Positions 3,753-35,382 of a stretch of DNA of 52,975 nucleotides are shown one piece after another. Under the pieces are notes generated by a model. That model searched no databases and was not told the origin of the DNA. It saw nothing but the letters and a program-made list of their open reading frames with translations. Positions within the stretch are counted from its first letter, which is position 1, and the number at the start of each line of letters is the position of its first letter. A program made the position numbers and the translations under genes. This DNA comes from a virus (lineage: Duplodnaviria; Caudoviricetes): positions 1 through 52,975 of IMG/VR virus record IMGVR_UViG_3300046170_000181. One strand, 5' to 3'.

Positions 3753-3758
3753 GTTTAT

Positions 3759-9279: not shown

Positions 9280-9282
9280 GCT

Positions 9283-11196: not shown

Positions 11197-11569
11197 TCTG
11201 CTTTGGTGGCAGAATAAAAATACCCCCCTCTGGCCCCTTAACTTCTACCTGTTCCTTTTTAACAAGGCCGGCTCGGTCAAGGATTTGGCTTGCCGCACTA
11301 ACTGCATTTCGTGCACCCATTGCGGAAGGGTCGTTCAATACATCAACCATGCTGAACGTGGCCTTCGGCGCATTCATTGCAATCATCATGCTGGCCCGTT
11401 CGACAATCTCATCACGGATAGGCGCAACAGCCTCTGCAATCTTCGTTGCATCTGAGTACCCTGCAATACGCATCGCGGCGCGGATGTCTCCACGCGCTTC
11501 TCCGCATAAGGCTTCTAAAAAAGCCTCTTGCCGTTCGGTTATCTTTTTCTTCTCGGGTGTGTCTGACAC
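11159..11569 (-). CDS. Putative terminase small subunit
   Basis: TERQEAFLEAL..AAMRIAGYS HTH-like N-terminus and QILDRAG motif; immediately upstream of terL. Confidence 0.6.
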   Translation of the reverse strand: MSDTPEKKKITERQEAFLEALCGEARGDIRAAMRIAGYSDATKIAEAVAPIRDEIVERASMMIAMNAPKATFSMVDVLNDPSAMGARNAVSAASQILDRAGLVKKEQVEVKGPEGGIFILPPKQIEPEYDNGNDPE

Positions 11570-11574
11570 TTAAA

Positions 11575-19626: not shown

Positions 19627-19685
19627 ACTAGTGGCATAGTTCAGCTATAATTCAGCTTGACGAATCATGAAAATGGGTGTATTTC
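19627..19685 (+). promoter_or_regulatory. Primase promoter with an abutting 31-bp operator-like motif
   Basis: TTGACG-17-TATTTC (extended TG), preceded by ACTAGTGGCATAGTTCAGCTATAATTCAGCT. Confidence 0.55.
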
Positions 19686-19742
19686 TAGCGAGGCCGCTTC
19701 GGGGCCGAGCTTACCCGTAACCAGATCGAAGGGGAGTTCGAT

Positions 19743-20501
19743 ATGAAATCGGTAATAGAAAATATTAAGATTAAACCGGATGAAACAATCCGGATTGATT
19801 GCCCGGAATGTAGTGGTAAGGGAACACTAACGATTACATACAAGTCAGGTGCCGTGCTTTATAATTGTTTCAAGGCATCGTGTTATGTATCCGGGGTAAT
19901 TAATCGTGATTATGATATTGGTTACATAAAACGTAAGTTATCCGGACAAGGCTCGGACGCACCATCAAAATGGAAACGTCCATTACCTGATATGACATCG
20001 TGTCCATCCCATCATCCATCCGTACTGAAATACCTTGAAGATAATAATGCATTATACGCATTTACTGAGAGGTTAATTCAAATTAGATACGACCCGAAAG
20101 CAAACCGGTGTTTGTTTTATATGAATAACAACACAGGGGCTGTTGGCCGGCATCTAAATGGTCACAAACCCAAGTGGATGGCATATGGTGATGTAACTGG
20201 AATACTTCCCGTGGGTAAATCAGATCATGGTATTGTCGTAGAAGACGCGGCCAGTGCCTGTGCGGTAGGTGCTACGGGTGTATATACAGGTATCGCTTTG
20301 TTAGGCACAAACCTAAATACAAAACAAAAGTCTCAACTATTATCATTTAACAAATTAACTATATGCCTTGACAAGGATGCCTCTCGTAAGTCATTAGTGT
20401 TACTACGTCAACTACAGGGGCTTGTACCGTGTTCGGTAAAGTTTCTTAACCAAGACCTAAAGTGCTACAACAGTTCGGAGATAGTTAGGGTAATAACATG
20501 A
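19743..20501 (+). CDS. DNA primase (zinc finger plus TOPRIM)
   Basis: CPEC..YNCFKASC zinc finger, VVEDAASA, ALLGT and ICLDKDA motifs. Confidence 0.88.
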   Translation: MKSVIENIKIKPDETIRIDCPECSGKGTLTITYKSGAVLYNCFKASCYVSGVINRDYDIGYIKRKLSGQGSDAPSKWKRPLPDMTSCPSHHPSVLKYLEDNNALYAFTERLIQIRYDPKANRCLFYMNNNTGAVGRHLNGHKPKWMAYGDVTGILPVGKSDHGIVVEDAASACAVGATGVYTGIALLGTNLNTKQKSQLLSFNKLTICLDKDASRKSLVLLRQLQGLVPCSVKFLNQDLKCYNSSEIVRVIT

Positions 20502-20635
20502 CATACCGCCGCAAAAATTACGATGGTTCCTGTCATGGCCGAAAGGCATCTTCATGGAGTGATCCACATCAGGCCCCCCCTTTGTCGATTTAGTATTTTT
20601 AACAATTTAAATTGACCTAAAAAGGGTATGTAAAG

Positions 20636-20839
20636 ATGAAAGCAAGAGGAATCGTGGTCATAGATTATGACCTTCCCGGTGGGTATAGAGAAGCCGCCAT
20701 TGAAGAGGAAAAGTTGGAACAAGCTGTTGCCAGCCTAGTTAAAGGTAACCCCCGTGTAATATATCATGAGGTGGATATCCGTGAAAGGCGCGGTGATAAC
20801 AAGCCCGACATAAAAAAAATGAAGCTCAGAAGTAGCTGA
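20636..20839 (+). CDS. Small hypothetical protein
   Basis: 67 aa MKARGIVVIDY..DIRERRG, followed by its own terminator (~20869-20894). Confidence 0.65.
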   Translation: MKARGIVVIDYDLPGGYREAAIEEEKLEQAVASLVKGNPRVIYHEVDIRERRGDNKPDIKKMKLRSS

Positions 20840-20898
20840 TCTACCAAGCAAATATCAGAGTGATATCATCCCCGGCCATTGCGCCGGGGTTTTCGTTG

Positions 20899-20928
20899 TT
20901 GCCACTAGTGGCGTAGTTGTGTTAGAGT
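20899..20928 (+). promoter_or_regulatory. Helicase promoter containing the palindromic motif GCCACTAGTGGC
   Basis: TTGCCA-18-TAGAGT. Confidence 0.55.
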
Positions 20929-20964
20929 TCGACTATAGTACAACGAAAAGACGAGCAGAACCGG

Positions 20965-22189
20965 ATGGACATATCTCTCCTCAAGTCACTAACAAGTGCA
21001 AATTTTTATAATGAAAACAAGGCGAACCTGACTAAAAACCTGTTTGATGATGAGCTTCGTGAGATCTATGAAATCATAAGCGAAGCCCATGACAGGTTTG
21101 ATCACGACCTTCAGATCAATGACGTTATAGCGTTGTGGCAGAACAAGAACCCTGTCGCTACACGTTCTGATATTGAATCAATGAAGGGAGTGATTGCGAC
21201 CATAAAGGACGCCCCACCTCTTTCAGACTCCGTAGCAAGTGAAGTCCTGCACGGATTGTGGCAACGTCACATCGGAACCAAGATTGCCAGCATTGGCCTC
21301 GAAATAAGTGAGGGCAATGATACGGCAATGGACAGGCTCAATACTTTACTAGACCGTAGTAAGGACGGGTTTCTTCCAACCGACTTTGGTGACTTCACGA
21401 CCAAAGACATTGAAATACTATTGGCTGAAACAAGTAATGAAAGCCGGTGGAAGTTCAATATCGAAACTCTATCCCGTCATGTTTATGGGATAGGCCCTCA
21501 AGAATTCATGGTTACCTTTGCCCTACCAGAGACGGGCAAGACAGCCTTTATCGTTTCTATAGCCTGTGCTCCCGGTGGCTTTTGCGACCAAGGTGCACGG
21601 GTTATTTATTTAGGGAATGAAGAAAAGACTACACGAACAATGCTCCGTGCAATGCAAGCGTGGTCAGGCATGACCCGGGAACAGATACGGGATAACCCGC
21701 ATTTAGCTCGGGACAGGTTTGAAATGATAGCAGACCGTTTTCGATATGAACGAGATTCAGGATTGGGATCTTAATAAAATCGAAGCTTACTGCGAACAGG
21801 TAAAGCCAGACGTTCTCATTATTGATCAGGCCGACAAGGTTCATATCAACGGAAGCTTCAATGCAGGGCATGAAAGACTTCGAGAACTTTACCGGCGGCT
21901 CCGTGAAACTGCCAAGAAGTACGATTGTGCTCTGATAGCCGTTAGCCAAGCCAGCAATGATGCCAAGGGTAAAACTCGTTTGAGTGCCTTTGATATGGAA
22001 GGTTCAAAGATTGGTAAGGCGGCTGAATCCGATTTGATCCTTGGTATTGGCCGGCATGAGCCCGGTGATGTGGATGACAGTGAGCCGGATACCACACGTT
22101 ATTTAACCATCAGTAAGAATAAATTGAGTGGTTGGCACGGCACAGAGATCTGTAACATTCAGGCCGGCATCAGCCGCTATTCGGAGTAG
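20965..22189 (+). CDS. DnaB-like (SF4) replicative helicase (+1 frameshift at ~21740)
   Basis: ALPETGKT Walker A, YLGNEE, IIDQADKV, AVSQAS and KAAESDLILG motifs. Confidence 0.9.
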
Positions 22190-22192
22190 TGA

Positions 22193-22720
22193 ATGCTGGT
22201 ACAGATAACTAAGCGAGATTCTCTATCGGCTGAAGTAATGGCCAAGGATACCTTGAAGCTTCTTGAGCTACAGGGTGTGAGCCCACGTCTAGAGAATGAT
22301 AAACAATCCCGGTTAGACGCAAACATATACGGATTTAAAGCTGAGTTTGCGGTGGCCCGTCTTTTCAACCTAGACCCACCATCCATTAACGTAGCCACGG
22401 ATGGCGGTGTGGATCTGTGGTTTGATGATACATCGATTGATGTCAAATTTTGCAATCAGGAATACGGACAGCTCATATTTGATAGTGCCCAAGTATTCCG
22501 TTCTGAAATTGCTGTTCTTGTTGGCAAAACAAGTGACGAAGACATCATGCGTGTGAACGGATGGATCAAACGCCGGGACTTTATCAAACAACATAACAAG
22601 CATGATTACGGCTTTGGCACACGTCTGGTGATGCAAGCAGATCAGCTCAATTCAATCGAAAAACTATGGCTTGAATTTGCTCACAGAAAGCATGGGGCCA
22701 ATGAAGGGGAAATTAAATGA
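22193..22720 (+). CDS. Hypothetical protein, possible PD-(D/E)XK fold
   Basis: G..AEFAVA..DGGVDL..IDVK pattern. Confidence 0.55.
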   Translation: MLVQITKRDSLSAEVMAKDTLKLLELQGVSPRLENDKQSRLDANIYGFKAEFAVARLFNLDPPSINVATDGGVDLWFDDTSIDVKFCNQEYGQLIFDSAQVFRSEIAVLVGKTSDEDIMRVNGWIKRRDFIKQHNKHDYGFGTRLVMQADQLNSIEKLWLEFAHRKHGANEGEIK

Positions 22721-24831
22721 AAGCAGTCGTATTAGACCTCGAAACTACCGTGCAGGATATACTCGGGTTAAAGGATAACAGTCCATTTGACCCAAATAAT
22801 AAAATTGTAATGGCTGAATGGCGGCGTGTTGAAGATGGTGTCATCGGAGTAGCTAAAAGAGCTATTTTCTATCACAAGGATTTAACCAGCCCCGATAGTC
22901 CAAAAGAACTACAAGATGATTTGGATTGGGCAGATATCGGCGTGGCACATAATGCCAAGTTCGATTGGATGTATCTGCAAGAAGCCGGCTTTAAATTGCC
23001 AGAGCGCGTCTGGTGTACGATGATTGGTGAATACATATTTGCTAGATCTCAGCCAAAATTTAAGTCGCTTAAAGCTACAGCCGAAAGAAGGGATGTTACT
23101 CGTAAGAAGTCTGATCTTGTAGATGATTTATTCCAAGGTGGCACCGGGTTTGATCAGATGCCGCTCGACACTGTAATCGAATATGCCGAGGCAGATGTCT
23201 TGTCCTGTGCAGAGATTTATCTGGATCAATTAAAAGACCTTTCAAAAGATTCAAATAAAGGTCTTGTACCCGTATTTGACCTGATGAACGAAATGCTACT
23301 CTTCCTGTGTGAGCTAGAGCGTAATGGTATCTGTATTGATACTGACGTGCTTTTAAAGGTTGAAGATGAATACATCAAAGAAAAGGCAGAGATAGAAGAT
23401 ACGCTCAACGAGATTATCGAATCCGTTATGGGCGATACCCCAATTAACAAAAACTCTGGCATCGACATGACTAAGGTAGTCTATAGTCGCTTTGTTCCTG
23501 ACCGGGAATATCATCGCAGAGCATTCAACATCGGTAATAACCCCGCCGGCAAACCGCTCCCACCGCCTCGTATGAGCCCCTCACAGTTTGCTAATACAGT
23601 ACGCAAGAGCACCCGTAGGGTAATGAAGACTGTGGCACATCACTGCGAAGCCTGTGAAGGCCGGGGGCGTGTTCAGAAATACAAGGTTGATGGCAACCCG
23701 TACAAGAACCTGACCAAGTGTGAGGCTTGTGATGGTCTTGGATATATCCTTACAGAAACAGGTAAAGTAGCTGGATTAAAGCTCGTACCAGAGGGCCCAA
23801 GGGATGCCAGTATAAATGGATTTAAGACAGATAAGGTCACAATTGCACGACTGATTACTCAAGCGGAAGTAAAGGGCAATGAAACCGCTATACTGTTTTT
23901 AACTAAGTTATCTAGGTTGAATGCAATCAGTACCTATCTCGATTCATTTATTAAGAACATCAAACAATGGACACGGCCGGACGGACTTCTTCATGCTCAG
24001 TTTAACCAAACTATAACTAAGACCGGTAGACTATCGAGCTCCAATCCAAACTTTCAGAATATCCCAAAGGGGCACAAATTTCCTGTACGGAAGGCTGTAG
24101 TTTCTAGGTTCGAGGGTGGTCAGATATTAGAGGCCGACTTTTCCGGACTTGAATTCCGGGTTGCCGGGGAATTAAGCCGCTGTCATCAGATCATTGATGA
24201 TATTCAGTCTGGTAAAGATGTTCATAAACAAACGGCCAGCATCATCAATCAGTGTGACGTTTCTGATGTTACAAAGGATATGAGACAGGCCGCGAAAGCG
24301 TTTACGTTTGCCCCGTTGTACGGCGGCATGGGTGCCAATGAGGCCCCTCACGTTCAAAAGTATTTTAAGGAATACTTCAAAATCTACTCAGGTCTTGCCA
24401 AGTGGCACAAAGAGCTGATGGATGGCGTGTTAAAGGATGGTATAGTCCGGATACCTTCTGGCAGGGAATTTTATTTTCCCGGGGCAAGACGGCTTCGTAA
24501 CGGACGTGTTACTAACGCAACCAATATTGTAAATTATCCGTGTCAAAGTTTTGCAACAGCCGACCTTGTTCCGCTGAGTTGCATACGGGCATTCAAGAAA
24601 TTCAAGGAAATAGGACTCACCTCAAAATTGATCCTGACGGTTCATGACAGCATCGTGGTGGATGTTTTTCCCGGTGAAGAAAAAAAAGTTGTTGATGCAC
24701 TGAAGTGGGCAATGCGTGAAATGCCCTCAGAAGTGAAGCAACGCTTTGATTATGAACTCTTATTACCCTTGGACATCGAAGCGACAACCGGCCCCAACTG
24801 GATGGAGCAAGATGATATCCCGATTGACTAA
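22717..24831 (+). CDS. Family A DNA polymerase with an inserted DnaJ-type zinc finger
   Basis: Exonuclease DLETT and HNAKFD; two CxxCxGxG repeats; TGRLSS, ADFSGLE, RQAAKAFTFAPLYG, NYPCQ and TVHDS motifs. Confidence 0.95.
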   Translation: MKAVVLDLETTVQDILGLKDNSPFDPNNKIVMAEWRRVEDGVIGVAKRAIFYHKDLTSPDSPKELQDDLDWADIGVAHNAKFDWMYLQEAGFKLPERVWCTMIGEYIFARSQPKFKSLKATAERRDVTRKKSDLVDDLFQGGTGFDQMPLDTVIEYAEADVLSCAEIYLDQLKDLSKDSNKGLVPVFDLMNEMLLFLCELERNGICIDTDVLLKVEDEYIKEKAEIEDTLNEIIESVMGDTPINKNSGIDMTKVVYSRFVPDREYHRRAFNIGNNPAGKPLPPPRMSPSQFANTVRKSTRRVMKTVAHHCEACEGRGRVQKYKVDGNPYKNLTKCEACDGLGYILTETGKVAGLKLVPEGPRDASINGFKTDKVTIARLITQAEVKGNETAILFLTKLSRLNAISTYLDSFIKNIKQWTRPDGLLHAQFNQTITKTGRLSSSNPNFQNIPKGHKFPVRKAVVSRFEGGQILEADFSGLEFRVAGELSRCHQIIDDIQSGKDVHKQTASIINQCDVSDVTKDMRQAAKAFTFAPLYGGMGANEAPHVQKYFKEYFKIYSGLAKWHKELMDGVLKDGIVRIPSGREFYFPGARRLRNGRVTNATNIVNYPCQSFATADLVPLSCIRAFKKFKEIGLTSKLILTVHDSIVVDVFPGEEKKVVDALKWAMREMPSEVKQRFDYELLLPLDIEATTGPNWMEQDDIPID

Positions 24832-24852
24832 CGCCACTAGTTAATGTATTAT
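24824..24852 (+). promoter_or_regulatory. Internal promoter with the ACGCCACTAGT motif in its spacer
   Basis: TTGACT-17-TATTAT. Confidence 0.65.
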
Positions 24853-24878
24853 AAAAGACCCTAATAAAGGAGACAGCA

Positions 24879-25715
24879 ATGGGCGAACTCTCAACTATCG
24901 ATCAGTCAAAAGCTCTAGAATTGGCCGCTATTCTAGGAACAAGCGAGAAGGCATCAAGTGATCGTCTTCCACAATTAAAAGTAAATACTAAGCGGAAAGA
25001 TCCACAAGGCCGTAAGATTGAAGAAGGTATGTTCTTCGTTACGGATCAAGATGAAAACGTGTATTCGGAAACTGTCCGCATCCGTGTTTTAAGTCAGCTA
25101 TTCCAGTGGATTCATTACGATCAGGAAAAGAATAAAGTCGTTAATAAAACGATTCTTATTCCAAAGCTCCGTGATGAAGCGCGTGATATGAAAGGCGGCA
25201 CCCGTTGTGGTAAGCCAGCCTCAAAAGTCCTGCGTGAGCTACCGAAGGAAGAGCAAAAGAAATACACGGATATCAAGTGTTTTCGTCAGCTCCGCGTTCT
25301 TGTCAGCTATACCGGTAAAACTGCCGATGGTGACGAGGTTACGGTTGAAAACCTACCAGCGGTTATGTTGTTGAAGGGATCTAACTTCAGCCCCTTCGAG
25401 GACGAGTTCATTAAGGTAATTCCCCGGAATAATAACTATTATGATTTCTGGTGTGATGTAACTTTGGAAGAACTCACTAACGGTTCGGTGACGTATTATG
25501 TCAATCATTACAAGCCAGATCTAACTAATCCTGTCGCAATGGATGAAGATACGTTCGACACGATGGTTGGTATGGGTGAGCTTGTTAAAGCAGAAAACAC
25601 TCGTATCGAGAATATGCATCTGGCCGCTATGCGTAATGATGATTTGTCGGATGATGCTATCGAAGCTGTTATTGATGCGGCACCTCTCGAAGATGATTTA
25701 GAAGACGAAGAATAG
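24879..25715 (+). CDS. Putative single-stranded DNA-binding protein
   Basis: Position after the polymerase, acidic C-terminal tail, strong RBS and own terminator (~25730-25757). Confidence 0.55.
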   Translation: MGELSTIDQSKALELAAILGTSEKASSDRLPQLKVNTKRKDPQGRKIEEGMFFVTDQDENVYSETVRIRVLSQLFQWIHYDQEKNKVVNKTILIPKLRDEARDMKGGTRCGKPASKVLRELPKEEQKKYTDIKCFRQLRVLVSYTGKTADGDEVTVENLPAVMLLKGSNFSPFEDEFIKVIPRNNNYYDFWCDVTLEELTNGSVTYYVNHYKPDLTNPVAMDEDTFDTMVGMGELVKAENTRIENMHLAAMRNDDLSDDAIEAVIDAAPLEDDLEDEE

Positions 25716-25781
25716 TCGTTCCACATTTAGGCGGGGGCATTCGTGCCCTCGTTTTTTGTCCCTTAAACATGGAGCGGTTAT

Positions 25782-26648
25782 ATGTCTTTTAACATCCTAG
25801 AAACAAAAATCCGTATGGCCCTCGATAAGTGGTCAAACGATGAGCCTATCGAATACAAGGAAGAGTGGATCGAGGAAGCTGGTGAGCAATTCAAAGATGC
25901 TCTCCGTAAGCAATTAAAGCCTCGTGAAAAGCAATTTCGTATGCGTATGTCAAACATCGGACGGCCTCTGTGCCAGCTCCAGATGGAGAAGATGGGCGAA
26001 GAGCGCAGTCGTAATTCCTATAACAGTATTATCCGGTTTCTTCTTGGTGACGCCACAGAAGTTCTGGTTGAGTTTGTTCTGAAGGTTGCCGGCGTGAATG
26101 TTACCGGGGGCAAGAGTGAAGCCAAGCTGTCTGTTAATGGGACTACTATTCTTGGCGAAAATGATGTCGAGATAGACAATAAAATTTATGATACCAAATC
26201 ATCCAGCCCGTGGGCTTACGAGCATAAATGGGGTGATGGGTGGCAGGGTGTCGCAAAAGACGACCCTTTTGGTTACATAAACCAACTCTACGGATATTCT
26301 GAAGGTACGGGGCTTGAGCCCGGTGGATGGATTGTTGTGAACAAATCCACAGGTGAACTGCGCGTTGTTGATGCGGAATTCACTACTGATGACAAGGATA
26401 AGATCCGTACAGACGTAAGTAATACAGTTGAAAAGCTCATGAGTGACGCTCCGTTCGAGCGGTGCTTTGAGCCACAAGATGAATATTTCCAGCGGAAATT
26501 GACAGGCAGTAAGCGGTTACCAATGAACTGCACCTTCTGCCCGTATTTAAATAAGTGTTGGCCGGATGCTGTCTACAAACCTCAAACAGGTAGTAAGGCG
26601 GTTAGTCCACGGCACTTCTGGTATTCTGAATATGCCGGTGACAAATGA
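25782..26648 (+). CDS. PD-(D/E)XK (Cas4-like) exonuclease
   Basis: RMSNIGRPLC, GEND..DTKS, YINQLYGY and CTFCPYLNKC motifs. Confidence 0.8.
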   Translation: MSFNILETKIRMALDKWSNDEPIEYKEEWIEEAGEQFKDALRKQLKPREKQFRMRMSNIGRPLCQLQMEKMGEERSRNSYNSIIRFLLGDATEVLVEFVLKVAGVNVTGGKSEAKLSVNGTTILGENDVEIDNKIYDTKSSSPWAYEHKWGDGWQGVAKDDPFGYINQLYGYSEGTGLEPGGWIVVNKSTGELRVVDAEFTTDDKDKIRTDVSNTVEKLMSDAPFERCFEPQDEYFQRKLTGSKRLPMNCTFCPYLNKCWPDAVYKPQTGSKAVSPRHFWYSEYAGDK

Positions 26649-26660
26649 AAATGAAGTTAA

Positions 26661-27107
26661 ATGGCTTTCCGAAATCTACGAGCAAGAGCGATAGCCGCCG
26701 GCTACCGGTCAGGTCTTGAAGAAGACATCGGGAAACAGCTCAAGACGCTTGGTGTTAAGGCCGAGTATGAGCCATTCCCTATTCCGTATACGGTTCCAAC
26801 AATTAGTCGGAAATATACGCCCGACTATGTTTTACCCAACGGAATTATTATCGAAAGTAAGGGCCGGTTTACCCCCGAAGATAGAAAAAAACATATCTAT
26901 CTGCGCGACACGCACGGCACTTCCCTCGATATCAGGTTTGTCTTCAACAACCCGAGGTCAAAGCTCCGTAAAGGTGCAAAGACAACTTATGCGGATTGGT
27001 GTGAGAAACACGGGTTTCATTACGCCAAAAAGGAAATCCCCGAAGAGTGGATTAATGAAAAACCAAGGAAGCGTTGTTTGTCCTTGATAGAAAGATTGAG
27101 AGGCTAG
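26661..27107 (+). CDS. Endonuclease I (T7 gp3-like resolvase)
   Basis: YRSGLE, YTPDYVL, IESKGRF..DRKKH and TYADWCEKHGF motifs. Confidence 0.92.
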   Translation: MAFRNLRARAIAAGYRSGLEEDIGKQLKTLGVKAEYEPFPIPYTVPTISRKYTPDYVLPNGIIIESKGRFTPEDRKKHIYLRDTHGTSLDIRFVFNNPRSKLRKGAKTTYADWCEKHGFHYAKKEIPEEWINEKPRKRCLSLIERLRG

Positions 27108-27110
27108 GCC

Positions 27111-27461
27111 GTGTCTGAAGAAGATTTTGAAGGCGTATTTATTGAAATCACTCCGGGTGATGAGGGTAATGTCAGCTTTAAGTGTGGCTGGAAATTTCCA
27201 GATGATGCTGACCCCGGGGCGGTAGATTATTTTAAAAGTATTGTAGCCGGCATCTATGGGATTCTGAGTTCAGACCCCGAGGATCTGGTTTCAATTGGTG
27301 ACGTTGTTAGATCCGTATCTGACTTCGATAATCCAGTGGAAGAACAGGAAGAACCCATTTTGGTTTTTGAGCCGGATGAAGAATTCCTAAAGAAAATGGA
27401 AGACAGCAAAGTTGTTGATCTCTCCAAATTCAAACCCAAACCCAACTCAAAAAAACACTAA
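27111..27461 (+). CDS. Acidic hypothetical protein
   Basis: 116 aa ORF within the operon. Confidence 0.6.
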   Translation: MSEEDFEGVFIEITPGDEGNVSFKCGWKFPDDADPGAVDYFKSIVAGIYGILSSDPEDLVSIGDVVRSVSDFDNPVEEQEEPILVFEPDEEFLKKMEDSKVVDLSKFKPKPNSKKH

Positions 27462-27473
27462 GAGTATTTAATT

Positions 27474-28025
27474 ATGGCCGAATTAGTTATTGGTTTATGT
27501 GGTTCAAAAGGTAGCGGAAAGAGCACAATCGCGTCTTATTTAAAGGCGCACCATAACGCTACAATTATTAAATTTGCAGACCCGTTGAAAGATATGATGA
27601 GGGCATTCGGCCTCACCTCTGATCAAATAGACGGGCCCTTGAAAGAGGAACCCTGCGAATTATTGGGCGGTAAAACGCCGAGACACGCAATGCAAACCCT
27701 TGGCACCGAATGGGGCCGTGAGCTCATTACGGAAGACGTGTGGGTTGATGCGTGGATGTCTAAGGTCAAAGCCACAGAGGGCGTTGTCGTGTGTGATGAC
27801 GTTCGCTTTCCTAACGAAGTGAAAGCTATTGATGTGGCATGGGGCGTATCAGTCTGGGTTGAACGTGATTCAATCTATGAGCCCGGGGATGAACACCCAT
27901 CAGAAACATCACTGAGCTTTTCGTATTGTGATTTTACCCTTGATAACACCCGTAAGATTAGTCTGGTTGCAAAGGAATTACTCGATGATGCGTGGGTTCT
28001 TAGAAACTTGCAAAGGATCGGATAA
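27474..28025 (+). CDS. Deoxynucleoside monophosphate kinase
   Basis: GSKGSGKST, FADPLK, MQTLGTEWGR and DDVRFPNE motifs. Confidence 0.9.
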   Translation: MAELVIGLCGSKGSGKSTIASYLKAHHNATIIKFADPLKDMMRAFGLTSDQIDGPLKEEPCELLGGKTPRHAMQTLGTEWGRELITEDVWVDAWMSKVKATEGVVVCDDVRFPNEVKAIDVAWGVSVWVERDSIYEPGDEHPSETSLSFSYCDFTLDNTRKISLVAKELLDDAWVLRNLQRIG

Positions 28026-28600
28026 TGCACATTCACCAGTTTTTCCATATGCCCCTCTTTAACGATGAAGATTGTGACGCCGTTATTCGGGTGGCTAATA
28101 AAGATGCTTTAACCAAGGGGAAGGTTCTTGGTGGCAGTACCGGTATAAAGGAAAAGCTGACCAGAAACTGCGCCTTGAAATGGCTAGATCCGGACGCACA
28201 CACTAAGTGGATGTTTGAGAAGATCGGTAGTGCCGTACAGAAGATGAACAACGATACTCTCAAGTTCAATCTTGATGGTGGTATGGAAAAGCTACAATAC
28301 CTCGAATACGGATTTGGCCAGTTCTACGCAGTACATACAGATAACTCAGATGATAAGGTTGCAACCCGTAAGCTTACAGCAATCATTCAGCTATCTGACC
28401 CGAAAGATTATTGGGGCGGCACATTAAAGATCGAGGGAACTTGTCTCGGCCAGCCCGGTAAAGGAATGAATTCGGCCCCTAAAAAACGGGGTACTATAAT
28501 TCTATTCCCATCACACCTTCGCCACATTGCAATGCCCGTTTTTGTTGGAAAACGCCGGGCACTTGTTGCGTGGTTTCATGGAACACAACCCCTCAGATAA
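28025..28600 (+). CDS. 2OG-Fe(II) oxygenase
   Basis: HTD..RKLT..QLSDP..YWGG..FPSHLRH..R jelly-roll motifs. Confidence 0.88.
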   Translation: MHIHQFFHMPLFNDEDCDAVIRVANKDALTKGKVLGGSTGIKEKLTRNCALKWLDPDAHTKWMFEKIGSAVQKMNNDTLKFNLDGGMEKLQYLEYGFGQFYAVHTDNSDDKVATRKLTAIIQLSDPKDYWGGTLKIEGTCLGQPGKGMNSAPKKRGTIILFPSHLRHIAMPVFVGKRRALVAWFHGTQPLR

Positions 28601-28614
28601 TAAACGGAGATACT

Positions 28615-28944
28615 ATGTTAGACTTTGATACCTATCAGGCACACGCGGCAGAGACTGCGATTTACCCGGACAACGTGAAGATCATGTATCCCGCAATGGG
28701 ATTGGCCGGCGAGGTGGGTGAAGTCCTTAACAAAATTAAGAAGATTTATCGAGATGAGCAAGGACAGCTCAGTGACGCTAAACGTGAAGAACTTACGAAA
28801 GAGGTGGGTGACTGTCTCTGGTATGTAGCCGCTCTTTGCACAGATTTAGATATCTCGATGGGCCATGCGGCCGAGGGCAACTTTCGCAAATTAATTGACC
28901 GCATGAATAGAGGAGTCATCGGCGGTTCCGGTGACAATAGATAA
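28615..28944 (+). CDS. mazG: MazG-like nucleotide pyrophosphohydrolase
   Basis: GLAGEVGEV..EVGDCLWY and C-terminal GSGDNR. Confidence 0.9.
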   Translation: MLDFDTYQAHAAETAIYPDNVKIMYPAMGLAGEVGEVLNKIKKIYRDEQGQLSDAKREELTKEVGDCLWYVAALCTDLDISMGHAAEGNFRKLIDRMNRGVIGGSGDNR

Positions 28945-28956
28945 CAACAAAACAGG

Positions 28957-31059
28957 GTGAGGATTATGCAAAATTCTACTAACTACTTCCCCTCGGGATA
29001 CGAGGAATTCATTTTTAAATCACGGTACGCACGTTGGCTGGAGTCAGAAGGACGCCGTGAAGATTGGCCGGAAACTGTTGAACGTATGGTTACGTTTATT
29101 AAGGGCCAATTAAAAACCAATCATAATTTTAAATTGGATCAGAAGACTACGGACGAGATCCGTGAGGCGGTTCTGTCATTTGAAGTAATGCCATCAATGC
29201 GTTCACTGATGACCAGTGGCCCGGCACTAGCCCGTGATAATACGGCAGGATACAACTGTAGTTATCTTCCTGTTGATGATCCTAAGTCATTTGATGAAGC
29301 AATGTTTATTCTACTTTGTGGGACGGGCGTTGGCTTTAGCTGTGAATGGAAAAACGTACAGAAGCTTCCAGATGTACCGGATGCATTGTATGATAGTGAA
29401 ACGGTCATCATGGTGCGCGATAGTAAGGAAGGTTGGGCAAAAGCATTCCGTCAGCTTATTGCATTGCTGTATTCCGGCGAGATCCCAAAATGGGATGTGT
29501 CCCGAGTACGTCCGGCAGGAGCACGGTTAAAGACATTCGGTGGACGCGCCAGTGGCCCACAGCCTCTAGTAGACCTATTCGAGTTCACATCAAACCTATT
29601 TAAGAACGCGGCGGGGCGTAAGCTTAACTGCCTAGAAGCGCATGATATCATGTGTAAGGTAGGCGAGATTGTTGTTGTTGGTGGTGTGCGCCGTAGTGCA
29701 ATGATTTCTCTTTCGGATTTGTCTGACAAGCTTCTCGCAAATGCTAAGAGCATCTATGACGTTCAGGAATACATTCTTATTAACGAAACAGATACGGAAT
29801 GGCATTACACCCTGACAATGAAAGAAGGTCAGGCTACCCACCCAACCTATCGTATCAAACTGAATAAAGAGACGCACAAGTGGGATAGACAACAGCTTGA
29901 ATCAGAAAAGAAGATCGGCTGGTGGGTATTGGAGCCTCAGAGGGCTCTAGCTAATAACAGTGCTACTTATGAAGAGAGCCCGGATGTACTTACATTCATG
30001 GATGAGTGGTCTTCACTGATTGCATCACAGTCCGGTGAGCGGGGTATATTTAACCGAGATGCTTCCCGTAGGACGGCGGAGAAAACTGGCCGGCGTGACG
30101 TTAATCATGAGTTCGGAACCAACCCTTGTTCTGAGATAGTTTTACGCCCATATCAGTTTTGCAACCTTAGTGAGTGTGTAGTCCGTGAAAAAGACGATCT
30201 ACAAGACCTAAAGCGTAAGGTTCGCATTGCAACCATTCTAGGGACGTTCCAGAGCACCCTGACGCACTTCCCCTACCTTCGTAAGGTATGGAAGAGCAAC
30301 ACGGAAGAAGAGCGGTTGCTGGGCGTAAGCTTGACCGGAATAATGGACAATGCTGTCCTTGCCAACACAACGGATAGTGAGCGTTGGTTGCAGGAGCTTA
30401 GAGAGCTTGCAGTAGAAACGAACAAGACATGGGCGAAGAAGCTTGGCATCCCACAGAGTGCTAGTATCACTTGCGTGAAGCCTTCCGGTACAGTGAGCCA
30501 GCTTGTGGATGCGGCATCCGGAATTCATACACGCCATAACCCACACTACATCCGTACAGTTCGCGGCGATAAGAAAGATCCACTGACTCAGTTTATGATT
30601 GACTCAGGTATCCCTGCCGAAGATTGCGTAATGAAGCCTGATACTACAGTCGTATTCAGCTTTCCTAAAAAGGCCCCTACTAATGCGGTTTGCCGTAACG
30701 ATAAAAGTGCAATTAAACAGCTTGAATTATGGCTTTTGTACCAAAAGTTCTGGTGCGAACATAAGCCATCTGTTAGTATAACAGTTAAGGAAAGTGAATG
30801 GCTACAAGTAGGTGCATGGGTATACGATAATTTCGATGATATTAGCGGAATTAGCTTTATGCCGTTTAGCGAACATACCTACAAACAGGCTCCATATCAG
30901 GATTGCTCCGTTGAGGAGTATGAAGAAATGCTCAGTAAAATGCCGGCTAAGATCAATTGGTCTAAGCTGTCTGAGTATGAAAAAGAAGATAATACGATTT
31001 CTAGCCAGACGTTGGCTTGTACAGGGGGAGTATGTGAAATCGTAGATATCGCCAGTTAA
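28957..31059 (+). CDS. nrdJ: Class II (B12-dependent, monomeric-type) ribonucleotide reductase
   Basis: PSMR, YNCS, GGVRRSA, TNPCSEI, CNL, VKPSGT, EHKPS and C-terminal CTGGVC; no NrdB gene nearby. Confidence 0.92.
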   Translation: MRIMQNSTNYFPSGYEEFIFKSRYARWLESEGRREDWPETVERMVTFIKGQLKTNHNFKLDQKTTDEIREAVLSFEVMPSMRSLMTSGPALARDNTAGYNCSYLPVDDPKSFDEAMFILLCGTGVGFSCEWKNVQKLPDVPDALYDSETVIMVRDSKEGWAKAFRQLIALLYSGEIPKWDVSRVRPAGARLKTFGGRASGPQPLVDLFEFTSNLFKNAAGRKLNCLEAHDIMCKVGEIVVVGGVRRSAMISLSDLSDKLLANAKSIYDVQEYILINETDTEWHYTLTMKEGQATHPTYRIKLNKETHKWDRQQLESEKKIGWWVLEPQRALANNSATYEESPDVLTFMDEWSSLIASQSGERGIFNRDASRRTAEKTGRRDVNHEFGTNPCSEIVLRPYQFCNLSECVVREKDDLQDLKRKVRIATILGTFQSTLTHFPYLRKVWKSNTEEERLLGVSLTGIMDNAVLANTTDSERWLQELRELAVETNKTWAKKLGIPQSASITCVKPSGTVSQLVDAASGIHTRHNPHYIRTVRGDKKDPLTQFMIDSGIPAEDCVMKPDTTVVFSFPKKAPTNAVCRNDKSAIKQLELWLLYQKFWCEHKPSVSITVKESEWLQVGAWVYDNFDDISGISFMPFSEHTYKQAPYQDCSVEEYEEMLSKMPAKINWSKLSEYEKEDNTISSQTLACTGGVCEIVDIAS

Positions 31060-31074
31060 AATGGAGAAGCCAAA

Positions 31075-31242
31075 GTGAGTAGTACAACAAAGAAACCCCC
31101 GTTAGTAATGGCCTATGAAATGGGCTTAAACGCTTTTTACAGAGGTATCTTTGATAGCCCCTATAAAAAAAGCTCTGTGCTCCACAAGGAGTGGGAACGA
31201 GGCTTTAATACTTCTTACTTTGCCAATCAAAAGGCGGCTTAA
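31075..31242 (+). CDS. Rmf-like small protein (55 aa), absent from the ORF track
   Basis: AYEMGLNAF..SPY..EWERGF resembles the ribosome-modulation-factor pattern; GGAG RBS before a GTG start. Confidence 0.5.
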   Translation: MSSTTKKPPLVMAYEMGLNAFYRGIFDSPYKKSSVLHKEWERGFNTSYFANQKAA

Positions 31243-31245
31243 ACT

Positions 31246-31449
31246 GTGTACGTTTATGTACTGATGTTATTTTATTGGAATGGCCCGGTTATGTATCCGC
31301 AAGCTTTCAAAACTTTTGAAGACTTCGAGGAATGCATAGCCGAGGCCATTATTATCCAAGAAGATAAATCAATCCCTTTCAACGCGGCCTGTATGCCTAC
31401 ACGGCCAAAACCAACTGCTCAAATTAACAAAGGAGAAAAACATGGCTGA
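31246..31449 (+). CDS. Hypothetical protein
   Basis: 67 aa, hydrophobic N-terminus and two Cys. Confidence 0.5.
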   Translation: MYVYVLMLFYWNGPVMYPQAFKTFEDFEECIAEAIIIQEDKSIPFNAACMPTRPKPTAQINKGEKHG

Positions 31450-31702
31450 AGAAGCTAAAACCGTAGATGACATCCTAGAGGGATGTAAAGGCAAGATGGA
31501 ATCTTGTGTAGTTACCGGGTTTGATACAAACGGAAATCTGTTTATGTCTAGCTCAGTGAACAATGTTCCCTTCATGCACTGGACTTTAAATAAGTCTATT
31601 TTCGAGCTGGGTCTGTTTGAAAAGCAAGCCAATGCAAATAAACCCCCTCAAACGGAAGAAGCCCCTGCATCAGACGTTGACACAGAGGCTTCAGATTCCT
31701 AA
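31442..31702 (+). CDS. Hypothetical protein
   Basis: 86 aa with an AAGGAG RBS. Confidence 0.65.
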   Translation: MAEEAKTVDDILEGCKGKMESCVVTGFDTNGNLFMSSSVNNVPFMHWTLNKSIFELGLFEKQANANKPPQTEEAPASDVDTEASDS

Positions 31703-31708
31703 TATATA

Positions 31709-31780
31709 GATGTTCATTTTAGCTAGTGAACACCAGCCCCCGCTACCGTCTAACCAACGGATCAATGGCGGGGGTTTTTA
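31709..31780 (+). ncRNA. Candidate 3'-UTR small RNA plus terminator of the replication arm
   Basis: Hairpin TGTTCA-TTTTAGCTAG-TGAACA followed by a CCCCCGC..GCGGGGG-TTTTT terminator; 14 nt antisense to both cassette leaders. Confidence 0.5.
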
Positions 31781-31781
31781 T

Positions 31782-34700
31782 TTATTGTAGTGGTATGGCG
31801 TCTCGGGTGAGATCCGTATTTCTATCCTTGTATGCGCCCAGCGCACCCTTAGTAAAGTACCGGCTTGTAAGAGCAATCAAATCTTCTTGAGTGTGCTCTT
31901 TACCTACAAGCTCGAAGGCTTCTTTCATGTAGTTAGGGTTGGCCATCATCATATCAAATGTGGTCATATACAGCTCTTGAGCTTGTCTATCACTCATCTC
32001 CGTAAATACACGTCCTATGTTCCGCGCCTTTGTGGCAGTCGGGTTTAGTACGCCCAATGTAAGCACGATTAGCCGGTCTACTTTTTGACGGTTGTCGATA
32101 TTCTGTGCCGTATTTGATCCGAAGTTCCCCGGGCGATATGCTCGATTATTTAATGCAATATTCTGTACCTGTAGAAGATCTACGAGATTTTGGTACATTT
32201 CCGGATCATCGGCAAACAACTCTTTAGCAACAACTAGCGTATTATCTCCGCCCCGCTGGCCGAGTATTCTGTCGAGCTTGGCCGCACTCATTTCATTTAC
32301 TGACCCGGCACCACCTTCAAGAGGATCTGCACCAAGGCGTTTTGCTGTTCCTATTTGATCAGCCACATAATTGAAGAAGTGGGCTTTAATTCCATCACGG
32401 ATAAGCGGGTTCGTATTAGGGTTCTCAAGCATCCGTTTAATTTGATCAGGAGCATTCTTACTTTTTAGAAGCTCATCAAATGCGGCACTAGGGTTAGCAC
32501 GAACCGCTGTATTACCGGTCAGGTCACTAACAAAGATACTTGCCGCATCCATTTGTGCGTTACGGATAACTTGATCATAATTAGCCTGATTAGTTTCGAG
32601 AACTTCTTTAGCTGTTAGAAGACCGGCATCAACCTGCCTCTAGGTCTTTAATGGTTTGATCAAATGATGAAAGAATACCTCTTCCTGCATCCGTTGATTC
32701 AAGTTGTTGTATATATGGCTGTAGTGCAGTTCTTACTTGATCGGCTGATATAGGCTTGCCGGCTTCGCTCATATTAAGAAGAGCCTTCATTGCAAGTCCG
32801 CCGTATGCATTGGCAAGGTTCATATCTGTACCCGGCCCGGAAGCCACACGGAGAGCCTCTAGTAGCTCTTCCATCTGAACACCGCTTGGATCTGCTTCAG
32901 CTTGTTTAAGAAGCATATAACCTTGTGAAAGCGTATCAGGCAGTCCGACAGGACGCCCCGTTGCTGTTACTACATCTTTACCCTCTGCCGTGGTGCTTGG
33001 AATAATGTTGCCGGCATCATCAATTTGAGCGGATACACCCCGAGCTGAGTCTTCCCATGCAGAAAGTGCGCTGGTAGATCCCCATACGGATTCATGATCG
33101 GCATAAACATTTTTAGCATTAACGAATGCTTCATCACCACTTTGTGTGGCCATGTCATCAATAACACCCTTGAGCTGAACCAACAGGTTAGCCGCCGGGT
33201 TCTTGTCGGCTCGAAGAGTTGTAATCCGCCCGGACAAAGCTGGTCTTACTTTAGTGTAAAGGAATTTAAGTGATAGGCCCTCTCCTTCAAGTCTTGCAAC
33301 GACATCATCCATCGTTTCCATGACGGGCTTTTTATTAGCACCCTTACCGGTGAACATGAGCTCACCAGCATCATCCAGCTTCTGTTGAGGCTTAAACCCT
33401 TTAACAATGTCTGCAATCGGATCTTGTTTGGTTGCAGTGCTAGTAATGAAATCAATTGAGTTATCGGCTTTGAAGATATCGTTGAAGTCTTCAATAAATG
33501 ATTTTGTATCAATTGGGGCATCATCTGGAAGAGCCTTGAAAGCTTCATTATAATTATCGTAGCTCTGACGCCATGACTTATAAAGGTCTTCCCCGGTCAG
33601 CATACTGAATGTTTGCCGTTCAGCCGCCGTAGAACCAATAGCATTCTTATCACGAGTTCCGTCTAGGATAGTTACAATTCTATCTCTGTCTCGCACGGCT
33701 TTAGCCTGTGCCTCTGCTATATCGGCATTTACGGTTGCTGTATCAAGCAGACTACGAGCATCTGATACATCGGTTACAATTCTACTAGCCTCGGCTGTAG
33801 CAAGATCATCAGCGGCCACTACACCGCCGGGAAGAGCTTCGTCACCGGCTGTACGCAAGGTAGATGTTACCTGTGCATTGATCATTGAATCTGCCTGATT
33901 AACGATGGGTGCGTTAGATCGGCTTTGCTTCATTGCTACAATGCGGTTCGCCATGTCAGCGGCTTGTTCTTTTACTTCAGCCTCAAATGCTTCCTTGCCA
34001 ATGATTGGTTCACGCCACGCCATTGTACGGCGGAAATAGTTCTCTGCCCCGAGCATGATTGCGGAACCAGAGTCGAGACTTATTTCAGCACCATCTTTTA
34101 CAAGGTTAGTTGTGAACGAGCTGTTCTCCGCCATAACTGCGCCGAGCTCATATGCTCTACGGGCAATCTCATTAAGCGGGGTATCATCCGTGATAGTAGG
34201 ATCAATTTCCTTTAGGATAATCATACCAAGTTCGCGTTGACGCCGTGCTTCGCTACCCGCACCCTTCGGTACAAATTTACTAGTTAGATATTTTGCACCC
34301 TTAAAGCTTTTTGCGAGTACGTTAATTCCAAAGCTGAATACTTCGTTATCAATGTAATGAGCTAGATTTTTATTTTCTTCGGGATCTGCACCAAACATCT
34401 CAAGGACATCGTCACCTACCAAAGGTTCGGCTGTGTCTGGTGTTGTTACAGTAGCACCTAAGTTAGCACCGCGCTCAATCAGAACACCTTTCAGGAATAA
34501 TTCCATACCCTGTTTAAAGTTGTCTGGGTTAGCTTGCTTTGCCTCATCCCACATTTTAGAGACATATTTAGCCATCTTAGGTGATAATTTAACCACCTTA
34601 TCAAGCTTGGCTACAATGCCGGCACCAGTTGCACCACCCGCCACAATACTAGTTATTTCCTGTCCTACTTCCTCAAGGCCGCTGGCCGCTGGATATATTG

Positions 34701-35382
34701 GGAAATTCTCACGGACACTATTCGAGCTGGGGTCACCGCCGAGAAGTGGATCTACGAGGTAGTCTTCTACGAAGGCACCTGTTTCTTGAGCCCCTCTTAG
34801 AAGGCCACCCATTAATGTACGCTGAAAACCTGTGCTTTCTGCGCCGGGTTTAGGAACGATATATGTTCTCTGTCCGTCAGGAGTATCAAATACCTGTGTA
34901 CGGGTTTCAACGCCAAACGTATCCCCAAGAAATGTTCCGGGCCCACCTAGACTAGCCTCACCATAATCACGGAAGCGGCTCATGTTGGCTTCTGTAATGG
35001 CTCGTTCGAGCATCATATTACGGGTAATGCTGTCCGTGGCATTTTGATATTCATCAGACTCAACTACGTTAACGATGATGGGGTTTTTCTTCTCATCTTC
35101 CGTAATGGGTGTTTCCATACGGTCAATATTAATAAACCCAAGCGTAGCATCTTTAGGATCAAAATATCCGCCCATAGTGGAGTCTTCCTCACCGGTAAAC
35201 GGTTTGGAATCTTTCATGGCGTTTAATGCGGCCTGACGAGCTTTTTCGAGCTCGGCATCTATAGTTGCCTGAGTCTTTGCTTCTTCATCAGTAGCAACCT
35301 CAATATCAGCAAATGGGTCTGGTGTTCCATCTTCGGAGCCAGCTAAAGTTACATCTGCAAATGGGTCGTTAGTATCGGCCAT
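31782..35382 (-). CDS. Large internal virion (ejection) protein (+1 frameshift at ~32635)
   Basis: ORFs 32629-35382 and 31782-32552 join to ~1200 aa, helical; last gene of the structural arm. Confidence 0.65.

Follow-up and report, generated by a model that had tools for sequence, protein, structure and literature searches.

What is the function of a short sequence that stands in the leaders of two putative early genes of a phage and recurs, 15 kb away, in a hairpin preceding a terminator? The question is raised by positions 31709–31780 of the IMG/VR virus record IMGVR_UViG_3300046170_000181 (Caudoviricetes). The stretch analysed, referred to as the window, is the entire record of 52,975 nt, with a completeness estimate of 99%. 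An earlier note on this DNA had proposed that the locus specifies a small RNA (sRNA) antisense to both leaders. Our comparison of sequences and predicted structures indicates that the region of about 31706–31783 on the plus strand most likely encodes a small non-coding RNA, and that this RNA probably represses the translation of early genes as an antisense sRNA acting in trans.

A 14-nt sequence shared by two leaders and the 31.7 kb locus

An exact scan of the window found the 14-mer TTTTAGCTAGTGAA exactly three times, always on the plus strand (15605–15618, 16548–16561 and 31717–31730), in agreement with the earlier note at all three positions. No additional copy with up to two mismatches was detected in the window scan or when it was repeated over the whole record, and no other 14-mer of the window occurs three or more times. 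Read on the minus strand, the first two copies are TTCACTAGCTAAAA. Both are located just 5' of the Shine–Dalgarno (SD) sequence AAGGAA, 14–15 nt from the ATG. Downstream of copy 1 comes AAAGGAATGTGAAAA-ATG, where the first presumed target open reading frame (ORF) starts, and downstream of copy 2 comes AAGGAACGCGAAAA-ATG, where the second starts. The identification of these genes as DUF932 and Gp88-like, made in the note from the sequence, was confirmed by the Pfam matches to DUF932 and GP88 (Table 1).

The block common to the two leaders extends to 18 identical nucleotides (15603–15620 and 16546–16563). According to a first-order Markov model of the window, 0.0028 chance copies of any 14-mer from this block are expected elsewhere on either strand. 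A shuffle test allowing two mismatches is weaker, with a mean of 0.46 matches and three matches reached in one of 100 shuffles.

The third copy sits in a 79-nt gap where the plus arm of the genome converges with the long minus arm. As had been noted, it belongs to a TGTTCA..TGAACA hairpin just before a plus-strand terminator, where it spans the loop (31717–31726) and part of the 3' arm. The sequence also bears out that plus-strand RNA from this site is a perfect 14-nt antisense to both leaders.

Both leaders begin with a G+C stem-loop upstream of the target site. Such 5' stem-loops, placed directly behind the promoter, are also present in the leaders of seven relatives (G001, G003, G005, G006, G008, G019 and L010), where the loop (U/C)GUGGUG is fixed and the stem varies (GGCG/CGCC, CCCGG/CCGGG, GCCUGC/GCGGGC). 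The constancy of the loop points to a further recognition element, be it for a protein, RNase or RNA. By eye, no complementarity was seen between this stem-loop and the sRNA, nor between its GUGGUG loop and the second loop of the sRNA, CUAACCA.

The duplex of site 1 with the 5' part of the sRNA has a predicted energy of −20.6 to −21.5 kcal/mol, with 14 bp and a second helix over the SD; that of site 2 has −22.6 kcal/mol. The idea that pairing could extend into the SD finds support here, as the prediction places a second helix of 6 bp over GGAAUG, past a small internal loop. Among 35,298 windows of a genome-wide duplex scan, site 2 ranked second and site 1 third, and these leaders are the only translation-start regions within the top 20. 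The scan is not a clean target search: its query included the G+C-rich terminator arm, so that G+C-rich coding windows score like leaders, and the top window (7277–7306) is within a coding region.

A predicted sRNA at the convergence of two arms

The 78-nt stretch folds with −30.4 kcal/mol (z-score −5.2) and obtains a score of 77.7 bits with the covariance model R1 described below. It comprises hairpin 1 and a terminator-type hairpin. The T-run of the terminator and the stop codon of the 86-aa ORF bracket the predicted RNA, which is the position of an sRNA derived from a 3' untranslated region (3' UTR). A promoter-like site directly upstream overlaps the ORF: its −10 hexamer includes the TAA stop codon (31700–31702), and its −35 hexamer lies inside the 3' end.

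None of the Rfam 15 families was found at gathering score anywhere in the window. A permissive Rfam scan of 31600–31850 returned only SscA, rdlD and RsaJ, with E-values of 0.8–3 and far under gathering. A frame of 26 codons with an ATG at 31711, found by eye, would make the locus coding; this was rejected, the start codon being missing in L005, L054 and others.

Conservation of the RNA structure in relatives

Relatives were reached via the DNA polymerase (16 IMG/VR loci) and via an alignment of the 86-aa protein (55 metagenome loci). A gapped pattern over the conserved terminator loop matched 28 IMG/VR contigs, one of them (G015) by chance. Other queries yielded little. With the neighbouring 256-aa protein or the exact 22-mer of hairpin 1 no close relatives were found in IMG/VR, and the narrow promoter pattern TTGACNNNGAGGNTTCNGANNNNTAATAT matched only two contigs that were already known. 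Blastn against the phage collection gave no match for the leader region and only chance 25-nt matches in Lak phages for the sRNA.

The element follows the 86-aa gene closely. Among the 55 metagenome loci with a relative of this gene, 44 have the element directly 3' of it, seven have a variant form and three are cut by the end of the contig. Only one locus (L072) is without the element and has just a terminator there.

A covariance model (R1) was built from ten copies and applied to 89 sources. It matched 72 copies in marine phage contigs, 39 of them distinct. In the alignment of the 39 distinct sequences, which is fitted to the model's own structure and thereby favours pairing scores, 93.6% of the cells are paired, compared with 79.0% in column shuffles and 36–52% with slid partners. 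Changes on both sides were observed in 18 of the 20 base pairs, and none of 500 shuffles attained any of the five measures. A secondary structure backed by covariation is one trait of trans-encoded base-pairing sRNAs. Independent analysis of a plain MAFFT alignment by RNAalifold recovered 14 terminator pairs, and compensatory changes were present in 10 of these.

Helices 2 and 3 are paired in 94% and 99%. A per-sequence search detected a hairpin-1 stem of 4–7 bp in each of the 39 distinct sequences, in 22 stem variants, and all five modelled pairs of hairpin 1 show double changes. A control on the arms of hairpin 1 discriminates moderately: the mean was 10.2 for cognate and 7.7 for non-cognate pairs, 18% of the non-cognate pairs are at or above the cognate median, and GG(A/G)C is common to many arms. 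The loop of hairpin 1 is hypervariable (23 variants in 39 sequences) apart from an invariant UAG(U).

The second loop, CTAACCA, is kept in 35 of the 39 distinct copies. In the window, this loop (CUAACCA in the RNA, 31750–31756, plus strand) is a possible second seed, for example against a host RNA, or a protein-binding site.

In a more distant relative (L019, 7370–7540), the same junction has a strong TTGACC-17-TATAAT site, and the structured stretch between this site and a terminator is longer and of another kind. An sRNA that is either unrelated or highly diverged may occupy this place.

Matched variation of seed and leaders

For the comparison of seeds and leaders, 19 IMG/VR records were taken whole, of which 18 are genuine after removal of the chance match G015. 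The reverse complement of hairpin 1 was compared with each whole record, and all exact matches of at least 9 nt were collected; coding sequence also yields 9-nt matches by chance. In the records with an early region, the top or near-top matches fall in leaders built alike, which consist of a TATAAT promoter, a 5' hairpin with the (U/C)GUGGUG loop, the motif, the SD and the ATG.

Ten phages, including the window and the cultured phages CRP-212 and CRP-3, have both the sRNA and the early region on one record. In all ten, the leaders (23 in total) complement the loop or linker of the phage's own sRNA (Table 1). The 31.7 kb copy, which according to the earlier note should persist in relatives and stay complementary, is thus part of a conserved element with covariation in 39 distinct sequences, and its loop is complementary in 10 of 10 records. 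The complementarity that is kept is one between seed and translation initiation region.

The contig L010 provided a prediction that held: its leaders were noticed first, and the matching sRNA was found afterwards by the covariance model. This sRNA, at 15025–15097, has the loop UUUGCUAGUGA, with 11 nt complementary to each of the three leaders. Two of these leaders are on the plus strand, one of them before an integrase-like gene. More generally, the orientation of the motif tracks the target gene on either DNA strand, as seen in L010, G008 and the helicase of CRP-212, and the motif is always located between the 5' hairpin and the SD or AUG.

The sum of the duplex energies of all cognate pairs is −567.5 kcal/mol, compared with −376.7 kcal/mol (standard deviation 39.2) for random assignment of sRNAs, and none of 20,000 assignments was as low. 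In this matrix the L010 query held part of the G+C-rich terminator arm, which gives it good scores against many leaders.

One complete relative (G006) has a terminal repeat (120–147 and 53342–53369) with the inverted repeat TTTGTAG..CTACAAA, whose arms are the seed of its own sRNA and the complement of that seed.

A variant form in cultured Roseobacter phages

Relatives of the 86-aa protein were also found in the Roseobacter phages CRP-212, CRP-3 and CRP-235. According to the account in PMC6918029, these are HMO-2011-type phages. CRP-212 and CRP-3 hold the variant form of the element that is also present in L063–L069. Its promoter-like site is TTGACC-17-TAAAAC or TATAAC, followed by a hairpin (GAAUGG/CCAUUC in CRP-212, GAAAAG/CUUUUC in CRP-3) with the loop UUUGGUCA, a single-stranded linker (UAGUUAGAAU in CRP-212, AAGUUAGAUAGC in CRP-3) and a terminator.

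The early leaders of both phages are bipartite complements, of which the first block fits the phage's own linker. The complementary blocks of CRP-212 flank the SD with a variable spacing of 7–10 nt. As judged from these sequences, the two helices in CRP-212 and CRP-3 would flank the SD and abut the start codon (UGACCAAAUG). Two sRNA architectures can be distinguished, one with the seed in a loop (window type) and a bipartite one with linker and loop (CRP-212/CRP-3 type).

HMO-2011 itself has no recognisable homologue at the equivalent junction, where a promoter-like site, a frame of 26 codons and a terminator are all that is present.

Table 1. Features of the window and of related phages that are referred to in the text
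Genome	Feature	Position	Strand	Description
Window	Promoter-like site	31677–31705	+	TTGACA (31677–31682), 17-nt spacer, TAATAT (31700–31705); consensus scan, 10 of 12 matches
Window	Predicted sRNA	31706–31783	+	about 70–78 nt; from fold and covariance model R1
Window	Hairpin 1	31711–31732	+	stem TGTTCA (31711–31716)/TGAACA (31727–31732), loop TTTTAGCTAG; carries the putative seed
Window	Terminator-type hairpin	31736–31783	+	long, G+C; inner stem CCGT/ACGG, loop CTAACCA (31750–31756), 3' bulge, T-run (31775–31783)
Window	86-aa ORF	31442–31702	+	last gene of the replication arm; no Pfam match; PHROG 11040, function unknown
Window	Target site 1	15605–15618	-	UUCACUAGCUAAAA; DUF932 5' leader; 15 nt to AUG, 3 nt to AAGGAA
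Window	Target site 2	16548–16561	-	same 14-mer; GP88-family 5' leader
Window	DUF932 gene, presumed target 1	14717–15589	-	Pfam PF06067, E 1.3e-26; PHROG 12094, unknown function
Window	DUF932 cassette signals	15684–15655; 14548–14521	-	promoter TTTACA-18-TATAAT; terminator-like; self-contained cassette
Window	GP88-family gene, presumed target 2	15832–16533	-	Pfam PF17338, E 3.1e-33; PHROG 1617, unknown function
Window	GP88 cassette signals	15724–15697	-	terminator-like; TTGCGT-17-GATACT upstream by eye; self-contained cassette
Window	Leader 1 5' stem-loop	15624–15646	-	predicted fold, GUGGU-type loop; directly after the promoter, upstream of the target site
Window	Leader 2 5' stem-loop	16566–16584	-	predicted fold, CCCGG-UGUGGUG-CCGGG; same feature in relatives
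Window	Leaders			TTCACTAGCTAAAA, twice
G001	Leaders			CACTAGCTA, twice, resuming past a 1–2 nt bulge
G003 (= G012)	Leader			TCACTAGCTA, small internal loop, then UGGAG (TGGAG in DNA)
G005	Leaders			CACTACAAAAGGA and ACTACAAAAGG, against loop TCCTTTTGTAGTG / UCCUUUUGUAGUG; pairing covers the SD (AAGGA)
G006	Leader			CACTACAAA-GGA
G008	Leaders			TCACTAGCAATG; second leader on the opposite DNA strand
G019	Leaders			TACTAGCAAAA and ACTAGCAAAA
L010	Leaders			TCACTAGCAAA, three times; motif ACTAGCAAAA
CRP-212	Leader blocks			ATTCTAACT..TGACCAAA, five times
CRP-212	Leaders			AUUCUAACU-GGAG-N3-4-UGACCA(AA)-AUG before gp54, gp55, gp56 and gp59; related site before helicase gp08
CRP-3	Leader blocks			TATCTAACTTG..TGACCAA; three sites in all
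CRP-3	gp57 leader			UAUCUAACUUG-GAGAC-UGACCAAUG
CRP-3	gp60 leader			AUCUAACUU-AUGGAGAC-UGACCAAAUG
CRP-3	Helicase gp09 leader			linker match only, CUAACUUGAAA, 11 nt; no UGACCA half
L023	tRNA-Arg(ACG)	3332–3408	+	1–3 nt after the T-run
L049	tRNA-Arg(ACG)	3317–3393	+	1–3 nt after the T-run
L084	tRNA-Arg(ACG)	12174–12250	+	1–3 nt after the T-run
Window	Minus arm	1–16677	-	early cassettes, then terminase, portal, adaptor
Window	Plus arm	17302–31702	+	integrase-like, ThyX, DnaB-like helicase, family-A DNA polymerase, endonuclease I, deoxynucleoside monophosphate kinase, B12-dependent ribonucleotide reductase, small ORFs
Window	Long minus arm	52975 down to 31782	-	

Strand and promoter of the predicted RNA

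Several features favour the plus strand for the predicted RNA. The alignment of the 39 distinct sequences contains 81 G·U cells and 13 A·C cells, and with this excess the structure is 93.6% paired as plus-strand RNA, compared with 84.8% as minus-strand RNA. A U-tract follows the hairpin on the plus strand only. In all three relatives that were checked (L023, L049 and L084), a plus-strand tRNA-Arg(ACG) starts directly past the T-run, so that plus-strand transcription must cross this spot in those phages. No tRNA genes were found in the window. In the three relatives, sRNA and tRNA-Arg may be co-transcribed, with the 3' end of the sRNA set by tRNA processing.

The promoter-like site is conserved to a large extent. 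All 39 distinct copies have TTGA in the −35 region and a spacing of 17 nt to a TA.... hexamer, and 25 of the 39 have TAnnnT as −10 hexamer. Where the stop codon has moved upstream (L054–L059, L037), TAAAAT or TATAAT is found at the same spacing, and TTGATG/TTGACG-17-TAGAAT occurs where the upstream context differs (L077, L093, L096, L010). The Val-Asp codons and the stop codon could explain part of the conservation of this site. A minus-strand promoter at copy 3 (TTCACT-18-TATATT, 31730–31701) was considered and rejected, its TTCACT being freely variable in relatives.

The RNA may be synthesized from its own promoter, from the 3' end of the mRNA of the 86-aa ORF, or by both routes. The description of the locus as the 3' UTR of the replication arm therefore needs to be modified: the RNA does lie between stop codon and terminator, but it is probably not only a 3' UTR, as the promoter-like site is kept in relatives. 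A promoter of the sigma-70 type suggests synthesis from the start of infection, and read-through from the replication arm would add RNA later; both routes would fit a shut-off of the early cassettes.

RNA libraries of two runs contained contigs from small parts of the window, one over the sRNA and two in the neighbouring minus-strand gene; stretches outside these contigs are uninformative. The former, a contig of 151 nt from an unstranded oligo-dT RNA library, covers 31637–31787 with 100% identity. If it represents RNA, it fits read-through from the ORF and thus the idea of a 3' UTR.

On the minus strand, the late gene ends at 31782, on the border of the sRNA's T-run. As there is no U-tract on the minus strand, late read-through would yield an RNA fully antisense to the sRNA, possibly a sponge.

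Mode of action and alternative explanations

The seed would pair in trans with the leaders of the DUF932 and GP88 genes, which are 15 kb away on the opposite strand. Hairpin 1 would present the seed to the single-stranded stretch of the leader between the 5' hairpin and the SD, and the duplex would then spread to 14 bp, with the predicted second helix of 6 bp over GGAAUG. 30S subunits would be kept from loading, with decay or cleavage of the mRNA as an option, and translation of the early genes would cease after the RNA has accumulated. Repression is favoured over activation because the pairing in relatives covers the SD or reaches the AUG and because the leaders have no inhibitory fold to be opened. 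We infer the production of the RNA, its pairing in vivo, the repressive effect and the role, be it temporal shut-off or immunity.

A number of observations weigh against an antisense repressor. The perfect 14 bp in the window end 3 nt before the SD, and reaching the SD takes an internal loop and two G·U pairs. The minimum-energy fold of the window sRNA puts eight of the 14 seed bases in a stem and leaves a loop of only 6 nt. As to the transcript, the final T of the −10 hexamer is missing in 14 of the 39 distinct copies, so that an own promoter is not universal, and the L010 copy has no U-tract. The sole hint of expression, the 151-nt contig, begins upstream of the proposed start and is possibly DNA carry-over. 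Specificity is not strict: only 12 of the 23 leaders have their lowest energy with the sRNA of the same phage, which ranks first or second for 20 of them. The leader of G003 matches the window sRNA over 16 nt exactly (−29.9 kcal/mol) and its own sRNA over 10 nt (−24.5 to −24.7 kcal/mol). Further, 11 of the 18 genuine records have no leader-type match; these are uninformative rather than negative because they are fragments of 31–78% completeness without the early region.

A more general objection is that complementarity of transcripts from opposite strands equals identity on one DNA strand, so that co-variation alone fits a co-evolving DNA-binding factor or homogenized repeats too. A regulator of phage or host might bind the shared motif as double-stranded DNA, with co-evolving sites, and the structure at copy 3 would then be only a terminator. 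The earlier note had named a shared DNA-binding site as its alternative. All three window copies are indeed on one DNA strand, identity within and divergence between genomes is the pattern of co-evolving operators, and the window motif holds the short palindromes TAGCTA and CTAG. We nevertheless regard an operator as improbable. The leader sites are about 30–45 nt downstream of the −10 hexamer, beside the SD and not over the promoter, and the palindrome is not kept (G005 and G006 carry CACTACAAAAGGA). Their direction is that of the target gene, whichever strand this occupies, and is reversed at the sRNA locus in every case. The spacing of the half-sites in CRP-212 varies by 7–10 nt, which an internal loop of RNA tolerates better than a protein–DNA site. 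The 31.7 kb motif is framed by a stem that co-varies in five of five pairs, with G·U pairs of the plus strand, which is needless for a DNA site, and no candidate regulator was identified. A position over or beside a promoter, conserved symmetry and fixed spacing, by which an operator would be recognized in the sequence, are not seen. Placement, orientation, palindrome and spacing weaken the alternative, which keeps a low probability.

There is also little likelihood that the sRNA pairs with the leaders but activates or stabilizes them, or that it mainly acts on host mRNAs via the CUAACCA loop. The 14-bp duplex of the window is upstream of the SD and not on it, and in leader 1 the SD may be enclosed by a weak hairpin (UUCAC..GUGAA). 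Also in favour of this alternative is the conservation of loop 2 (35 of 39), which is far higher than that of the seed loop with its 23 variants and suggests a second conserved partner. However, in the folds predicted for the leaders the SD lies unpaired within a loop, and no inhibitory structure is obvious (leader 2 has a z-score of −0.26 beyond its 5' hairpin). The pairing in relatives has the geometry of repression, lying over the SD (AAGGA in G005, UGGAG in G003) or abutting the start codon (UGACCAAAUG, CRP-212 and CRP-3).

Phage genomes do carry short repeated boundary sequences, and identity on one strand is what conversion yields, but that copy 3 is a functionless relic or a recombination-homogenized repeat kept identical by gene conversion is highly improbable, since the shared stretch of only 9–14 nt with unrelated flanks is too short for ordinary conversion tracts, falls exactly on the loop or linker of a hairpin that co-varies across 39 distinct sequences, shows the same relation in two sRNA architectures and predicted the L010 copy.

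Relation to known regulatory RNAs

Base-pairing small RNAs with which a phage controls regulatory or early genes of its own have precedents. Sar of P22 and OOP of lambda are cis-antisense RNAs, encoded opposite their targets with full complementarity, and CI RNA of the satellite phage P4 causes premature termination of transcription. Unlike these, the present RNA is encoded in trans and has a seed of 9–14 nt next to or on the SD. CpxQ and SdhX, 3'-UTR-derived sRNAs of enterobacteria that share the terminator of an mRNA, resemble it in their position at the 3' end of a coding gene with a shared terminator, in a possible internal promoter and in the order of a 5' seed followed by the terminator hairpin. 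The present sRNA differs from them in being encoded by a phage and directed to the phage's own early genes.

The closest parallel is c4 RNA of the phages P1 and P7. It is processed from the same operon as its target, and Rfam includes a C4 family. Our sRNA is located 15 kb from its targets, at the convergence of replication and late arms, and matches no Rfam family. As summarized in PMC12197685, c4, of the immI region, is a phage-encoded trans-acting sRNA whose loop-borne complementary stretches pair around the ribosome-binding site (RBS) and block translation, and the c4 RNA and its target differ together between the two phages, which is the basis of their heteroimmunity. Judged by this account, the window sRNA is alike in being phage-encoded, in presenting its seed in a loop, in its predicted pairing in the RBS region and in its phage-specific matched changes, and the CRP-212/CRP-3 form is bipartite like c4. 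It is unlike c4 in having several independent target leaders, two in the window and at least five in CRP-212, and in being carried by HMO-2011-type marine podophages. By analogy, the present sRNA would work like c4 and would represent a new family.

A further phage RNA described in PMC12197685 is STnc6030 of the Salmonella prophage BTP1, which pairs sequence-specifically with a phage transcript and matters for superinfection exclusion. Unlike the present sRNA, which would be directed to early translation starts, STnc6030 is there reported as antisense to the region of the late tailspike gene.

A full-text literature search yielded no relevant report linking HMO-2011 or roseophages with an sRNA. 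The main texts of PMC6918029 and PMC9038755, as distinct from their supplements, contain no mention of sRNA, small RNA, noncoding, antisense or repressor.

A possible role in immunity

A hypervariable seed with matched leaders, in an RNA that is otherwise nearly fixed, is the pattern expected of diversifying heteroimmunity as in P1/P7 c4. It is conceivable, if rather doubtful, that the sRNA is the specificity determinant of an RNA-based immunity or superinfection exclusion in HMO-2011-type marine podophages. The leaders that track the seed include those of the replicative helicase and of an integrase-like gene in some relatives. Members of the HMO-2011 type carry integrases, and CRP-3 integrates into a host tRNA gene, as stated in PMC6918029. 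A constitutively made sRNA that keeps the early regulon silent could supply the maintenance or immunity factor that is missing.

Two points are to be set against a role in immunity. A CUAG core is common to many seeds, which would cross-react. With the strict pattern used, representative bacterial genomes yielded no integrated copy; the four matches were a phage contig (G008) in a metagenome-assembled genome and three chance matches without the hairpin, and they decide nothing about prophage copies.

Only a few temperate phages of enterobacteria are known to encode RNAs that regulate their own programme. The finding would add a well-supported, widespread family in cultured and uncultured HMO-2011-type marine podophages, which are among the most abundant marine viral groups. 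Its distinctive traits are a multi-gene early regulon, a seed evolving with its targets and an unusually clean comparative signal from 10 phages and two architectures. The antisense sRNA offers a rationale for the stereotyped leaders of GP88 and DUF932 genes, with 5' hairpin, motif and SD, and could help to predict cross-regulation or exclusion among co-occurring marine phages. As CRP-212 and CRP-3, which are cultured on Roseobacter strain FZCC0040, carry the system, it is directly testable.

Genome context

The structure of the protein encoded by the last gene of the replication arm, the 86-aa ORF, was predicted by AlphaFold2 with a mean pLDDT (predicted local distance difference test) of 69, and a Foldseek search against the PDB gave nothing below an E-value of 0.3. 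The weak top rows were winged-helix proteins, which is no basis for assigning RNA or DNA binding. On the other side of the sRNA, the minus-strand ORFs 31782–32552 and 32629–35382 (256 and 917 aa) correspond to a single ORF of 1158 aa in L005 (14991–18467) and of 748 aa in L009, so that the gene may be split in the window.

The first sizeable gene of the plus arm (17503–18204, plus strand, 233 aa) has no Pfam match and weak matches to integrase families of PHROG (E 5.6e-12). It is much shorter than the integrases of CRP-3 and CRP-212; the leader of its L010 homologue holds the target motif of the sRNA. Similarity to DnaB-like helicase is spread over two overlapping ORFs, 20965–21774 and 21746–22189 on the plus strand; a frameshift, whether programmed or not, or a mistake in the assembly may be the cause.

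A second repeated motif, (A)CGCCACTAGT, often after GCTGAACTA, occurs in promoter-like contexts at 4885, 19429, 19628, 20903 and 24835 of the window. At 24824–24852, upstream of the gene at 24879, it makes up the spacer of TTGACT-17-TATTAT. Like the leader motif it contains CACTAG, and it may serve as an operator or belong to a promoter family.

A strong hairpin with a T-run is present at 17088–17122, past the ORF 16845–17060, and is probably the region of the 17.1 kb RNA mentioned in the earlier note. The end of this ORF contains CTAAAATGAA (17038–17047, plus strand), a 10-nt match to the complement of the 5' arm and loop of the sRNA.

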